Assembly (NCBI RefSeq): GCF_054482595.1
Contig: NZ_CM137008.1
Direction: 5' to 3' (one strand)
DNA length: 64,000 bases
Shown here piece by piece: positions 2,629-6,735 of this stretch; the stretch's first letter is position 1, and each line of letters opens with the position of its first letter. The position numbers and the translations under genes were made by a program. The notes beneath the pieces are model-generated. The model had not been told where the DNA came from. It saw only the letters and a program-made list of their open reading frames with translations, and did no database searches.

Positions 2629-5600
2629 TTAGTCGAACGGCGGTGGGGCCAGCACTTCACGATTACCGTTGTGCCCCTGTTCGCTGACAATCCCCTGCGC
2701 TTCCATCTGTTCGATAATACGCGCTGCACGGTTATAACCAATGCGGAACTGACGCTGTACGCCAGAAATTGACGCTTTGCGTTTTTCAGTGACAAACTGC
2801 ACCGCCTGATCGAACAACGGATCCAGTTCTTCAGCGCCATCGAAACCACCCGCACCACCTTCGCTTTCGCTGTCGGAGGTGATGCCATCAACATACTGTG
2901 GGCGACCACGCGCTTTCCAGTCCTGCACCACGGCATGAACTTCCTGATCGCGAACAAAAGCACCATGGACACGTACCGGCAACGTGGAGTTCGGCCCAGA
3001 GTAGAGCATATCCCCCATACCCAGCAGTGATTCCGCGCCAGCCTGATCAAGAATGGTACGTGAGTCAATCTTACTGGATACGGTAAAGGCGATACGGGTC
3101 GGAATATTCGCTTTAATCAGACCAGTAATAACATCAACCGATGGACGCTGAGTTGCCAGTACGAGGTGGATACCCGCGGCACGGGCTTTTTGCGCCAGAC
3201 GTGCTATCAGCTCTTCCACTTTTTTACCTACTGTCATCATCAGGTCGGCAAATTCGTCCACCAACACCACAATGTATGGTTCTTTTTTCAGCACCGGATG
3301 CTGGGCATCCATACTGTCACCCGGCTTCCAGTACGGGTCTGGAATCGGACGCATCATGCGATCGGCTTCAGCAATTTTTTCGTTATAACCCGCCAGATTA
3401 CGCACACCCAGCGCAGACATCAGTTTATACCGACGCTCCATCTCGTTAACACACCAGCGCAGCGCGTTGGCGGCATCTTTCATATCAGTAACGACTTCCG
3501 TTAACAGGTGCGGAATGCCTTCATAAACCGAAAGCTCCAGCATTTTCGGGTCGATCATGATGAAACGCACATCTTCTGGCTGTGCTTTATAAAGCATGCT
3601 CAGGATCATCGCGTTCACACCGACAGATTTACCGGAACCGGTAGTCCCCGCAACCAACAAGTGCGGCATTTTCGCCAGATCGGCAACCACCGGCTCACCG
3701 GCGATATCTTTACCCAGCACCACGGTTAATGGCGACGGATTATCGCGGAATTTGGCGTTATCCAAAACTTCGCGCAGATAAACGGTTTGTCGTTTTTTAT
3801 TTGGTAACTCCAGACCTACATAGGGTTTGCCAGGAATAACTTCAACGACACGCACCGCCACCGTCGAAAGTGAACGGGCAAGGTCCCGTGACAAGTTAGA
3901 AATGCGCGCCGCTTTTACGCCAGGAGCCAGGTTAAGTTCAAAGCGAGTGATAACTGGCCCCGGAGAGTAATTGACGACATCGGCTTTAATACGGAAATCA
4001 GCCAGACGCGCTTCCACCAGACGCGCCATTTGTTCAAGCGCAAAGGTATCTACCGGCTCCACTTCGCTCGGCGGCGGTGTCAGCAAATCCAGAGAAGGCA
4101 GCGGCGTCGTCGGTTTGTGCAACGGACGGCTGTCGCCATTACGCATCAACAGCGGATGAAGCAGGGTATCCTGCGGCTGTGGCGCAACTGGCTGTTGTGG
4201 CTGCTGATACTGCGGCTGCGGTGCAACCGGTTGTTGCGGCTGTTGATACTGCGGCTGCGGCGCAACTGGTTGTTGCGGCTGTTGATACTGCGGCTGCGGT
4301 GCAACCGGCTGTTGCGGCTGCTGATATTGCTGCTGTGGCGCAACCGGCTGTTGTGGCTGCTGATACTGCTGCTGCGGTGCAACCGGCTGTTGCGGCTGCT
4401 GATACTGCGGCTGCGGTGCAACCGGTTGTTGCGGCTGCTGTACAGGTTCAACAATTGGCGTAAACAACGGTTCGTGTGGACCATCATCCAGCAACGCTTT
4501 CATTGGCGAAAATTCAAAATCATCCAGCGAGAACGGATTCGCCCCAGCCGGTTGTTCGCCGGAATAACGTTGTTGTTGAGTTTGCGCAAACTGACGAGCC
4601 AGTTCAGCCTCTGCCGCAGCATCTGCATCTTCTGCGTTTACGGGCACATCATGTTGATACTGTTCGCCATAGCGTTGCTGCTGTGTCTGGGCGAACTGAC
4701 GTGCCAGTTCATCCTGCTGCATCGCATCGATTTCATCATCGTTGTACTGATCGCCAGAATCGTACTGATTGCGCTGGGCTTCACGGGCTTTTTCTTCCGC
4801 CGCACGCTGTGAGGGCAGCTTAATACCGTAAGACGCCAATTCACGACGAGTTGGCACGCGGATACGTTTCGGTCGTGGCAACTGCGGGCCAATCCCCTCT
4901 TTGACCTGCGGACGCGGTCCACCGCTATTTGCCAGACTGAAGACTGGCGCGGCAACGGTTGCGGCAGCCCCCGTCGCCAGTGTCGCTTTTTTCACGCCAG
5001 ATGCCAGCGGAGAAACAGCGGCAGCGGCTTCTACTGGAGGTACTGCTGCAACAGAAGGTGCTTTCAGCGAAGATTTGATCGGTTCTGGTTCTTTAACCGG
5101 TTCTGGAATCGGTTGATACCAGGCCGCAAGTTGTTCACGTTCACGGGCTCGCTTCTCTTCCACTTCTTCAAAGTAGTAAAGCGGCGGACGCGCGGGTTTT
5201 GTCTCTTCTACAACGGGTTCAGGCTCCACAACAGGCTGCTGTTCAACAGGTTGCGGCTGTTGGTACAACGGCTCCTGAGCGGCTGGCTGCTGATAAGTTT
5301 GCTCAGTCTGGTATGTAGACTGTGGAGCAAAAGTGGATTGCTGCTCTTCGGCTTGCCAGGCGTTACCTGCCACCGGTTGTTCTGGCGCAGGGGCATAATA
5401 CGGCTGTTGCGCAGGCTGTTCCGGCGCAGTTGCGTAATACGGTTGCTGAACAGGTTGTTCCGCCGCAGGAGCGTAGTAAGGTTGTTGCGCAGGTTGTTCA
5501 GCTGCAGGTGCATAATACGGCTGCTGCGGCTGTACTGGTTGTTGCAGCGGCTCATTATATTGCACTGCAGGCTGCGCATATTGTGACTGCTGTGGGTAAC

Positions 5601-6735
5601 CTTCCGGTGCAGGAGCAATAACCGGCTCTCCCGTTTGTGGACCCGGTACAGGCTGCCAGGCTACTGTAGGTTGCGAAGGTGGAACATCAACAGAGGCAAC
5701 AGGCGGCGTCTGAGTCACAGGTTCAACCGGCGCAGCCCAGCTTTGTGTCGCCGTGGTAGCAGCAGCTGCTACAGCGACAGGTTCGGTAATTGGCGCACCA
5801 TTTAATAATGGATCGTATTCGTCATATTCTGGCTGCGTTGCACGATTGCCCGAAAATAGGACGTCGTCAGGGTCGGCAGCCACACCGCGTGCAGTGTAGG
5901 TAATATCTTCTTCATCATCCATCCGCTTACCGGAGAACAGCGCAGCATCTGTTTGCCGCCCCATCGGATTAATGAATTTTTCCGCCAACCGTTTACGACG
6001 CGCTAGCGCGCCGCGAAGAATACGGGCACGGCGTGATTCATGCTGTTTGCCGTGGTTTTCATCTTCATACTCTTCGTCATCTTCATATTCATCTTCATCG
6101 ACCCAGGTATCATCGCGACGGGTACGATTACTGGCGAAGGTGAGAATGTTTAAAATCCAGCCGCCGAGTTTTTCAGCAATGGTCACCCATGACCAACCGG
6201 TGAACAACGTCAGGCCCGCTGCCCAAACGCAGAGCAGCGCAATAGTTCCCCCGCTACTGTGTAGCAGTGGTTGTAGCGTAGTGCTTAGTAAGCTGCCAAT
6301 GACGCCACCGGAGGCAAAATACCAGATATCGTCAGCGTTGATTGCCGCCAGACCACAGGAGGTAAGGATGAGCGCCAAAACGCCAATGATGCGTAGCGAA
6401 ACGGCAAAATAATCAATGTATTCGTCGCTGGACTGATGACGCCAGGCAAACCAACAACCGCCGACAATAATGACGGGAATGGTGTAAGCCATCACGCCAA
6501 AAATAAAGAACAGCGTATCTGCCAACCACGCACCGGGCATCCCACCTAAATTATGGATAGGTTCATGCCAGGCCGTTTGCGACCAGCTGGGGTCCGAAGG
6601 GTTAAAGCTTAGTAAGGCAGCCATCAACCAGACGGCAAACAGGACAATAAGGATCAGCAACGCCTCCAGAAGGCGGCGGCCGCTACTTAACTTTGTCAAT
6701 GTGACTTCTTTGTCTTCAGTGTATTCCTGGCTCAA
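2629..6735 (-). CDS. ftsK: DNA translocase FtsK (1368 aa)
   Basis: N-terminus [23 protein letters not shown], membrane domain, long Pro/Gln-rich linker, C-terminal motor with Walker A GTTGSGKS and winged-helix gamma domain. Confidence 0.96.
4171..4443 (-). repeat. In-frame 39-bp tandem repeat (about 7 units) in ftsK linker, encoding [13 protein letters not shown] units
   Basis: Direct reading: ctgcggctgcggtgcaaccggttgttgcggctgttgata repeated head-to-tail with minor variants. Confidence 0.85.
5375..5530 (-). repeat. Second in-frame 39-bp tandem repeat (about 4 units) in ftsK linker, encoding [13 protein letters not shown]-like units
   Basis: Repeated ggctgttgcgcaggctgttccggcgcagttgcgtaatac-like units visible in sequence and in the translated protein. 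Confidence 0.75.

Follow-up and report, generated by a model that had tools for sequence, protein, structure and literature searches.

Two in-frame 39-bp repeat arrays in the ftsK linker of Escherichia coli correspond to the known MLVA loci CVN001/ms07 and ms06 and vary in copy number between strains

Introduction

The cell division protein FtsK, a DNA translocase, carries a linker (FtsKL) that is unstructured, rich in proline and glutamine, variable in length between species and required for normal division (PMC5357621; PMC3870252). As relayed by the reviews that cite Bigot 2004 and Dubarry 2010, FtsKL comprises about 650 amino acids (aa) and connects the membrane domain to the motor (PMC5357621; PMC3870252), and parts of the linker are reviewed as interacting with FtsQ, FtsL, FtsI and FtsZ (PMC5357621). 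When the literature was searched for what the PQ repeats specifically do, general statements on the linker alone were returned.

Repeats in this gene are well known from strain typing. The ftsK gene of Salmonella contains a "variable PQ repeat region" with the 39-bp VNTR STTR7/SENTR2 (PMC2430564; PMC8627665). For E. coli, the loci ms06 and ms07 belong to a Shigella/E. coli MLVA panel (primers given in PMC8215070); the published alleles of ms06 are 2, 3 and 4, with sizes of 301-379 bp (PMC8215070), while alleles 5 and 6 of locus CVN001 account for 40% each in published data (PMC5217547).

The window analyzed here, i.e., the whole stretch of 64,000 nucleotides of contig NZ_CM137008.1 (assembly GCF_054482595.1), encodes an FtsK protein whose linker resembles FtsKL, as the reviews portray it, in being a P/Q-rich, unstructured segment linking membrane domain and motor. 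The FtsKL papers, to the extent that these reviews present them, treat the linker as a whole, whereas our focus is on the within-species variation of two discrete arrays. Taken together, the analyses described below make it highly probable that the arrays are two in-frame 39-bp minisatellites of the unstructured linker, already known as MLVA loci, which would change by misalignment of units, provide alleles that mark lineages and form part of a length-tolerant tether.

Identity and domain organization of ftsK

The gene was originally predicted to be ftsK, and this was confirmed by the presence of four Pfam domains, a K-12-like gene order and 100% identity over 4107 nt to the annotated ftsK gene of E. 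coli XH990, found when the whole gene was searched by megablast against 5,426 E. coli genomes. The annotated feature under all the matches listed in that search was ftsK. The following features were distinguished:

2629-6735, minus strand: ftsK CDS, 1368 aa, TTG start (ORF list, Pfam, identity to XH990, end-to-end alignment with K-12 b0890)
6163-6678, minus strand: FtsK_4TM membrane domain, the N-terminal anchor of the linker, aa 20-191 (PF13491, E 5e-42)
3799-4101, minus strand: FtsK_alpha domain, with which the motor begins 23 aa downstream of block 1, aa 879-979 (PF17854, E 1e-29)
3136-3777, minus strand: FtsK/SpoIIIE ATPase domain, aa 987-1200 (PF01580, E 9e-88)
2647-2829, minus strand: FtsK gamma domain, aa 1303-1363 (PF09397, E 3e-28)

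The TTG start is that of the annotated K-12 gene, and the translation contains the Walker A sequence GTTGSGKS. The order lrp-ftsK-lolA, read from the ORF list, agrees with the K-12 order trxB-lrp-ftsK-lolA. The protein thus shows every trait expected of an FtsK orthologue: the N-terminal 4-TM domain, the C-terminal motor composed of alpha, ATPase and gamma domains, and the position between lrp and lolA. Other-frame and opposite-strand ORFs that cross the repeats (e.g., 4030-4812 plus, 4077-4463 plus and 4146-4487 minus) were rejected as genes and regarded as repetitive, out-of-frame read-throughs.

Structure of the two arrays

Both arrays are in frame within the single 1368-aa ORF and, according to the Pfam assignments, are located between FtsK_4TM and FtsK_alpha:

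4171-4440, minus strand: block 1, a 39-bp array of six full units and one 36-nt last unit, encoding 13-residue units that end in (P/Q)QY, aa 766-855; MLVA locus CVN001 = ms07
5375-5528, minus strand: block 2, a 39-bp array of about four units, each encoding a 13-residue peptide, aa 406-457; MLVA locus ms06

Tandem Repeats Finder (TRF) reported a period of 39, 6.9 copies, 90% matches, no indels and a score of 421 for block 1, and a period of 39, 3.9 copies, 77% matches and a score of 175 for block 2 (206 at a 78-bp period). The prediction of two in-frame 39-bp arrays of about seven and four units was thereby upheld, with one correction: block 1, read on the minus strand, starts at 4440, not at 4443. 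In the peptide register, the units of block 2 run from 5520 down to 5365 and are led by a degenerate unit (5521-5559). When the codons of the linker were shuffled 200 times, the best TRF score (period of at least 12) averaged 7.7 and reached at most 59, which is far below the scores of the arrays; the P/Q-rich composition therefore does not account for either array.

All seven units of block 1 are distinct at the nucleotide level, and they encode just two peptide variants. The description of the 13-aa units as PQ-rich suits block 1 (49% Q, 29% P) and has to be amended for block 2, which is rich in P (25%), A (25%), Q (19%) and Y (15%).

Length difference from K-12 FtsK

FtsK of the window (1368 aa) exceeds K-12 FtsK (1329 aa) by 39 aa. 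When the two proteins are aligned, they differ in length at just two points: K-12 has gaps of 26 aa in block 2 and of 13 aa in block 1, i.e., the window has two additional units in block 2 and one in block 1. Since these sole gaps fall within the arrays, the extra residues come from the repeats and from nowhere else. This bears out the proposal that the protein is longer than that of K-12 by virtue of its repeats; a length difference arising elsewhere, which would have contradicted it, was not seen in the alignment.

The arrays as MLVA loci

CVN001 is said to belong to the generic E. coli MLVA of Lindstedt et al. 2007. On either side of the two arrays there are exact matches to the primers published for CVN001, ms07 and ms06:

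4535-4553, minus strand: CVN001 forward primer site, exact single match, none expected by chance (primer from PMC8143711, Table 1)
4070-4089, plus strand: CVN001 reverse primer site, exact single match (primer from PMC8143711)
4681-4700, minus strand: ms07 forward primer site, exact single match, within the first copy of a 14-residue motif (primer from PMC8215070, Table 1)
4075-4094, plus strand: ms07 reverse primer site, exact single match
5617-5636, minus strand: ms06 forward primer site, exact match (primer from PMC8215070)
5258-5277, plus strand: ms06 reverse primer site, exact match

The in silico amplicons of the window and of K-12 are 484 (4070-4553) and 445 bp for CVN001, 626 and 587 bp for ms07, and 379 (four units, allele 4) and 301 bp for ms06, respectively. 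These sizes agree with the published classes, and the ms06 product of the window lies at the upper end of the published range. With the published formula (PMC8143711), the CVN001 allele of the window is a whole number, (484-250)/39 = 6. CVN001 and ms07 are thus one locus, identical with block 1: both primer pairs flank the array exactly, the repeat unit spans 39 bp, and the frequencies published for the alleles agree with the genome census presented below. Likewise, ms06 and block 2 are one locus and no difference between them was found: the primers match exactly, the repeat unit again spans 39 bp, and the census recovers the same three alleles (2, 3 and 4).

The arrays and their copy-number variation are therefore already known as standard typing markers, and the suggestion that they might be useful for strain typing describes established practice. 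Their practical value is that of routine markers, under which the window types as CVN001 allele 6, ms07 626 bp and ms06 allele 4 (379 bp). Both alleles, seven nominal units in block 1 and four in block 2, are common.

Copy-number variation among E. coli strains

The whole-gene megablast revealed several gene-length classes, and in nearly half of the matches listed the alignments were split by the repeats. As array length is unreadable in split alignments, we used synthetic queries composed of the unique flanks only, for which the span per record gives the array length directly, and applied them to a sample of 60 genomes, drawn at regular intervals from the 5,426 complete E. coli genomes.

In this census the length of block 1 ranged from 168 to 348 bp, equal to about 4.3 to 8.9 units; the 270-bp allele of the window and the 231-bp allele of K-12 made up 40% each. 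The underlying flank-query spans were 591 bp (window type, n=24), 552 bp (K-12 type, n=24), 513 bp (n=2), 630 bp (n=3) and 669 bp (n=1), to which are added spans that depart from the multiple of 39, namely 567 bp (n=2) and 528, 537 and 489 bp (one each), and one partial match. For block 2, the genomes were distributed almost evenly among two (n=21), three (n=19) and four units (n=20). The predicted variation in copy number between strains is hence established for both arrays by the census together with the unit maps described below, and an identical repeat number in all strains, the outcome that would speak against it, was found at neither array.

The variants differ by 15, 24, 39 and 78 nt and by sums of these values. 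Because the unit has 39 nt and all differences are multiples of 3, the reading frame is never lost. Consistently, each of 12 additional ftsK genes of E. coli, retrieved via the BLAST matches, is annotated as an intact CDS (3951-4146 nt). The encoded proteins have 1316-1381 aa; among them, FtsK varies in length by up to about 65 residues, a spread that E. coli tolerates in a linker of approximately 650-690 aa.

Two caveats for in silico MLVA follow from these data. Gene length hides the allele combination, as an ftsK gene of 4107 nt consists of seven and four units in the window and of eight and three in strain GN02270. Moreover, non-integer or null alleles result from the 15- or 24-nt sub-unit deletions and from one flank deletion, a natural one in strain Z1323HEC0300, which eliminates the forward primer site of CVN001. 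The CVN001/ms07 typing literature examined mentions neither the sub-unit deletions nor the loss of this primer site.

Minisatellites are prone to mis-assembly from short reads, which could in principle have created the extra units of the window. We give this explanation almost no weight, as the identical gene is present in the complete genome of XH990, the array lengths of the window recur in the sampled complete genomes at frequencies of about 40% for block 1 and 33% for block 2, each of the two arrays (154-270 bp) has units that can be told apart by sequence, and the allele sizes agree with the PCR-based literature.

Unit maps and the origin of copy-number changes

Unit maps drawn for 13 strains, in which each letter denotes a unit, revealed gains and losses of whole units as well as deletions of 15 and 24 nt between sub-repeats of 9 nt within the units. 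Strain CUPS04 (ISTUV) differs from K-12 (ISTQUV) by the loss of one unit, BCE049 (HHAln) from FDAARGOS_1292 (HHAlmJn) by the loss of two units, and isolate 162 (NYNY...) carries a tandem duplication of two units. Sub-repeats of the form CAGCC(G/A)CAA, spaced 24 and 15 nt apart, are joined in the 15-nt unit QQPQY and likewise in the 15-nt deletion of KFu019.

These events fit slipped-strand mispairing, which had been proposed as an origin consistent with the variation; the maps agree with that proposal, although unequal recombination is inseparable from slippage by sequence alone. Indeed, replication slippage, RecA-dependent unequal exchange and the import of alleles by homologous recombination between lineages would all leave similar traces in such comparisons. 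In the mechanism we envisage, neighboring units would misalign during replication (slipped-strand mispairing) or in unequal sister-strand exchange and so alter the copy number, while the 9-nt sub-repeats inside the unit would give rise to the smaller deletions of 15 and 24 nt. With 13 residues per unit, the linker would become longer or shorter without a frameshift. The resulting alleles would then be kept as lineage markers, and it is this persistence that would allow the arrays to serve as MLVA typing loci.

A possible though less likely reading is that most of the copy-number differences are old alleles, spread between lineages by homologous recombination with little ongoing slippage, which would make the arrays slowly changing markers of lineages and not active VNTRs. 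The array types are indeed lineage-like: unit H, with a GTA valine codon, comes first in FDAARGOS_1292, BCE049, ST1193 and Ecol_745, and unit I or N in K-12, O157 and others. All K-12-derived records in the megablast sample share an ftsK gene of 3990 nt, and the identity between units, just about 90% in block 1 and 77% in block 2, should lower slippage rates. The two routes to a 4107-nt gene, in the window and in GN02270, also suit this reading. However, otherwise identical arrays that lie one clean unit event apart (K-12 and CUPS04, FDAARGOS_1292 and BCE049, and the NYNY duplication) are what recent slippage or unequal exchange in situ predicts, and such changes and the transfer of old alleles are not mutually exclusive.

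Repeats at the same position in other Enterobacteriaceae

Arrays with a 39-bp period were also found at the block 1 position in Citrobacter, Kluyvera and Pseudescherichia. More generally, the period at this position depends on the genus (36, 39, 42, 45 or 57 nt). Xenorhabdus and Photorhabdus carry a bare (QQP)n, in E. albertii part of the array has given way to 11 consecutive alanines, and several Enterobacteriaceae have just an irregular P/Q-rich sequence. The theme Y-Q-Q-P...Q-P-V-x-P-Q recurs at the same position in five genera (Citrobacter, Enterobacter, Siccibacter, Superficieibacter and Pseudescherichia), directly before the conserved motif (D/E)(S/T)L(I/L)HP(L/F)LMRNGD. Across Enterobacteriaceae, in-frame repeats have thus expanded repeatedly, and in a lineage-specific manner, in the stretch just upstream of the FtsK motor.

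The STTR7/SENTR2 locus of Salmonella enterica resembles the E. coli arrays in its gene, its 39-bp period and its in-frame variation used in MLVA (PMC2430564; PMC8627665; PMC6137255), and differs from them in occurring in another genus and in having more copies (9.3 in S. Enteritidis). Judging by the 39-bp arrays of Citrobacter, Kluyvera and Pseudescherichia, it is probably positionally orthologous to block 1. This assignment takes Salmonella from literature statements, as the 79 loci retrieved by our contig scan included no ftsK locus of this genus.

Possible roles of the arrays

The arrays most likely act as an extended, flexible tether that tolerates changes in length. The length tolerance of E. 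coli FtsK and the recurrent expansion of repeats just upstream of the motor agree with the accepted picture of FtsKL as a flexible tether and raise no new question. It was also suggested that copy number could modulate linker length between anchor and motor; such changes may or may not affect how the linker works.

Among the seven block 1 units of the window, pS is 0.41 and pN 0.016; the respective values for the block 2 units are 0.69 and 0.10. The peptide is thus strongly conserved among units whose synonymous sites differ, and the peptide sequence itself could matter. The 13-residue units might accordingly be specific, multivalent short linear motifs for a partner (a divisome protein or the FtsK motor), with copy number tuning avidity beyond the length of the tether. 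Besides the low pN relative to pS in both blocks, the theme recurring at a fixed position in five genera and the reported contacts of linker parts with FtsQ, FtsL, FtsI and FtsZ (PMC5357621) favor such motifs. Between species, however, dN/dS of the arrays is about 0.1, slightly above that of the non-repeat linker (0.07-0.08), and the constraint on the peptide is therefore not exceptional. The genus-dependent period, the bare (QQP)n, the alanine run of E. albertii and the merely irregular sequence of several Enterobacteriaceae also speak against a binding motif, as does the tolerance of natural E. coli strains for block 1 lengths of between 4.3 and 8.9 units. As the arrays evolve no slower than the surrounding linker, we retain the motif idea as a minor and rather improbable rival of the flexible tether. 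A little more doubtful still is its stronger form, which would draw on the low pN/pS and the recurrent theme: the two conserved 13-residue units would be multivalent short linear binding motifs and no passive spacer, and natural copy-number alleles would tune the coupling of the motor to a divisome or envelope partner.

Intragenic tandem repeats are the usual substrate of contingency loci, and a Salmonella strain with altered survival in egg white had a deletion in the ftsK repeats (PMC6137255). It is nevertheless very improbable that the arrays act as a contingency (phase-variation-like) locus by which FtsK expression or activity is adaptively switched or tuned. Such a locus would work through shifts of frame or promoter spacing, and all variants proved to be in frame, the unit and every difference being multiples of 3 nt, with all 12 of the fetched genes annotated as intact; this candidate was rejected. 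In addition, the literature describes ftsK as essential for division, and its alleles are stable within laboratory lineages.

Structure of the ftsK linker arrays

Two in-frame 39-bp tandem arrays, block 1 and block 2, lie in the linker of one gene. This gene is E. coli ftsK, as established by (i) the Pfam domains of its product, (ii) the adjoining lolA, lrp and trxB ORFs, whose gene order is that of K-12 MG1655, (iii) 100% identity (4107/4107 nt) to ftsK as annotated in E. coli XH990, and (iv) the ftsK annotation under each match among the whole-gene BLAST matches listed. The start codon is TTG, as in the K-12 annotation. According to the Pfam coordinates, the membrane domain and the motor bracket both arrays:

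2629-6735, minus strand: ftsK, a single long ORF (1368 aa) containing both arrays
aa 20-191: FtsK_4TM (Pfam)
aa 879-979: FtsK_alpha (Pfam)
aa 987-1200: FtsK/SpoIIIE ATPase (Pfam)
aa 1303-1363: FtsK_gamma (Pfam)
4171-4440: block 1 (Tandem Repeats Finder, TRF: 39 bp, 6.9 copies, 90% matches, no indels, score 421)
5375-5528: block 2 (TRF: 39 bp, 3.9 copies, 77% matches, no indels, score 175)

In gene orientation, block 1 is composed of six units of 39 nt and a last unit of 36 nt (aa 766-855); its peptide unit ends with (P/Q)QY, and 23 residues separate it from the alpha domain. Block 2 comprises four units (aa 406-457) with one degenerate unit ahead, and reaches a TRF score of 206 when read with a 78-bp period. 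P/Q-rich composition by itself does not explain the arrays, since the TRF score stayed at or below 59 in 200 codon shuffles of the linker. Five further ORFs overlapping the arrays (4030-4812, plus; 4077-4463, plus; 4146-4487, minus; 5113-5586, plus; and 5208-5618, minus) were rejected as genes; their translations are repetitive, and these long ORFs result from the absence of stop codons from the repeats in the frames concerned.

The original prediction that the repeats make this FtsK longer than the K-12 protein (1329 aa) was borne out by the alignment of the two (99% identity). The alignment is interrupted just twice, by a 26-aa gap within block 2 and a 13-aa gap within block 1, and thus the 39-aa excess consists solely of two block 2 units and one block 1 unit.

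Two other elements were observed between the membrane domain and the motor. A short acidic repeat (6058-6099, minus strand; aa 213-226; TRF periods 6, 9 and 18, with 2-7 copies) is placed just past the membrane domain, a position at which TRF reports similar 15-24-nt repeats in many other Enterobacteriaceae. Moreover, a 14-residue motif occurs twice in the linker, its copies lying 35 residues apart:

4669-4710, minus strand: first copy (aa 676-689), holding the forward primer of typing locus ms07
4564-4605, minus strand: second copy (aa 711-724)

Both copies are kept across Enterobacteriaceae as ELARQFAxxQQxRY, with stronger conservation than the PQ arrays, and may represent a functional linear motif. 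A related sequence, QALAAQFAAQQQAxYAE, is located in a 105-nt × 3 tandem array in Pantoea sp. 1.19 (ORF nt 1690-2015).

Copy number variation and typing loci

The whole-gene BLAST matches listed had gene lengths of 3990, 4020, 4029, 4044, 4068, 4083 and 4107 nt. The full-length match of E. coli 2013C-3277 (NZ_CP027331.1, 341761-345866) spans 4106 nt, one base fewer than 4107, a shortfall due to a frameshift or to faulty sequencing in this record. Many whole-gene alignments were split by the repeats, and therefore queries built of the unique flanks alone were used, their span in a genome being the measure of array length. Sixty genomes were sampled at even steps down a ranking of 5,426 E. coli genomes.

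Block 1 alleles in the 60 sampled genomes (span; array; genomes)
591 bp (window type); 270 bp; 24
552 bp (K-12 type); 231 bp; 24
513 bp; 192 bp; 2
630 bp; 309 bp; 3
669 bp; 348 bp; 1
567 bp; 246 bp; 2
528 bp; 207 bp; 1
537 bp; 216 bp; 1
489 bp; 168 bp; 1
504 bp; partial match (67% of query), array length not measurable; 1

Block 2 had two units (K-12 type) in 21 genomes, three in 19 and four (window type) in 20. The window thus has one of the two most frequent alleles at block 1 and the longest allele seen at block 2. The postulated copy number variation among strains is therefore real at both blocks. All length differences in the sample were multiples of 3, and 12 of 12 further E. coli ftsK genes taken from the BLAST matches were annotated as intact (3951-4146 nt, 1316-1381 aa). 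Gene or protein length alone is insufficient to identify an allele, since 4107 nt corresponds to 7 + 4 units (block 1 + block 2) in the window and to 8 + 3 in strain GN02270.

The flank-only queries also matched eight places on records classed as plasmids, while one of the 5,426 genomes gave no match, despite the reported essentiality of ftsK (PMC3870252). These cases could stem from wrongly typed replicons, from F-prime-like elements, or from an assembly that is divergent or incomplete.

The predicted usefulness for strain typing is already realized, as primers of three published 39-bp loci match the array flanks and give in-silico amplicons that fit the published sizes:

4535-4553 (minus) and 4070-4089 (plus): CVN001 primer sites around block 1, exact match
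4681-4700 (minus) and 4075-4094 (plus): ms07 primer sites on either side of block 1
5617-5636 (minus) and 5258-5277 (plus): ms06 primer sites on either side of block 2

CVN001 belongs to a generic E. coli MLVA scheme, in which the allele equals (size - 250)/39 (PMC8143711); the amplicons of 484 bp (window) and 445 bp (K-12) are thus alleles 6 and 5. In a Swedish survey each of these two alleles was found in 40% of isolates, with 4, 7 and 8 being rarer (PMC5217547), frequencies matching those of our 60-genome sample. Loci ms06 and ms07 are part of a Shigella/E. coli panel (PMC8215070). The ms07 amplicon of the window (626 bp) lies within the published range of 392-821 bp, and the ms06 amplicons of the window (379 bp) and K-12 (301 bp) coincide exactly with both ends of the range published for alleles 2, 3 and 4 (301-379 bp). 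Salmonella likewise has a 39-bp VNTR in ftsK, STTR7/SENTR2 (PMC2430564), and an in-frame loss of two of nine linker repeats has been described there (PMC6137255). Overall, the original prediction was confirmed as an observation and supported in its interpretation, and all that it raised about the feature had been known before; our additions (the sub-unit deletion mechanism, length homoplasy, a natural null allele at the CVN001 forward primer, and the cross-genus survey) are all small.

Origin of the alleles

Block 1 of 13 E. coli alleles was split into units, with one letter for each distinct nucleotide unit. These maps revealed a one-unit loss (ISTQUV in K-12 vs. ISTUV in CUPS04), a two-unit tandem duplication (NYNYZPaRb in isolate 162) and a two-unit difference (HHAlmJn in FDAARGOS_1292 vs. 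HHAln in BCE049). A 15-nt unit (QQPQY) is present in the alleles that deviate in length from a multiple of 39; it is the remnant of a 24-nt deletion between two intra-unit CAGCCGCAA sub-repeats. In KFu019 the complementary deletion, of 15 nt, joins sub-repeats of neighbouring units. In Z1323HEC0300 (NZ_CP148366.1, approximately nt 1500-1850 of the locus), an in-frame deletion from SGEQP to the first VAPQ of the array takes out the conserved segment directly 5' of block 1; the gene (3981 nt) is still annotated as intact. Read from the corresponding window sites, the junction appears to lie at a 9-nt AACAACCGG microhomology. With this deletion the forward primer site of CVN001 is lost, and the strain is therefore predicted to give a null allele.

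Repeats of 9 nt are far too short for RecA-dependent exchange to be efficient, and so the sub-unit deletions between them point to slipped-strand mispairing. Replication slippage, proposed originally for the copy number changes, is thus favoured for the sub-unit events, while whole-unit events would look the same in sequence under slippage or unequal exchange and are compatible with both. Given the lineage-like array types and the single allele common to all K-12 derivatives among the matches listed, both loci act as lineage markers that change fairly slowly, which fits the identity of only 77-90% between units.

Selection on the linker

According to reviews, the FtsK linker (FtsKL) is an unstructured, P/Q-rich region of approximately 650 aa on which normal division depends; it makes contact with FtsQ, FtsL, FtsI and FtsZ, and its length differs between species (PMC5357621; PMC3870252). 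Most differences between units within the window are at synonymous sites (block 1: pS 0.41, pN 0.016; block 2: pS 0.69, pN 0.10), and thus the E. coli arrays are old, with purifying selection acting on their peptide. In comparisons between species, however, the dN/dS of the arrays (~0.1) far exceeds that of the motor (0.013-0.024) and is slightly higher than that of the non-repeat linker (0.07-0.08). The simplest reading is an extended tether tolerant of composition and length; a specific motif function of the arrays is a minor and rather improbable alternative.

Linker arrays in other species

In a comparison set of 79 related loci from other species, the block 1 interval is bounded by the conserved motif FSPMKxLVDDGPxEPLFTP and by one beginning with (D/E). 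It is P/Q/Y-rich in all Enterobacteriaceae retrieved, with a lineage-dependent repeat structure:

Escherichia, Citrobacter, Kluyvera, Pseudescherichia: 39-nt arrays (C. werkmanii: 5.1 copies, 97% matches)
Siccibacter: 36-nt repeat
Enterobacter sp. Bisph1: 42-nt repeat
Superficieibacter: 45-nt repeat
Enterobacter sp. ENT03: 57-nt repeat
Xenorhabdus ehlersii (ORF nt 1685-1872): perfect 9-bp microsatellite, (QQP)21, 100% identity
Photorhabdus cinerea (ORF nt 1773-1877): perfect 9-bp microsatellite, (QQP)12, 100% identity
E. albertii NBRC 107761: run of 11 alanines in place of part of the array, then ~2 PQ units
several other lineages: irregular P/Q-rich sequence

The (QQP)n microsatellites are likely much more mutable than the 39-bp array of E. 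coli. At the block 2 position, E. albertii NBRC 107761 retains a 39-bp × 3.3 array; among the 79 loci, tandem arrays at this position were confined to Escherichia, with Superficieibacter having an analogous, different one. An unrelated 48-nt × 9.2 linker array (92% matches) with PQAYVAPVEQAAPYVE-like units was found in Photobacterium piscicola (ORF nt 1018-1457), and thus linker minisatellites also exist beyond Enterobacterales.
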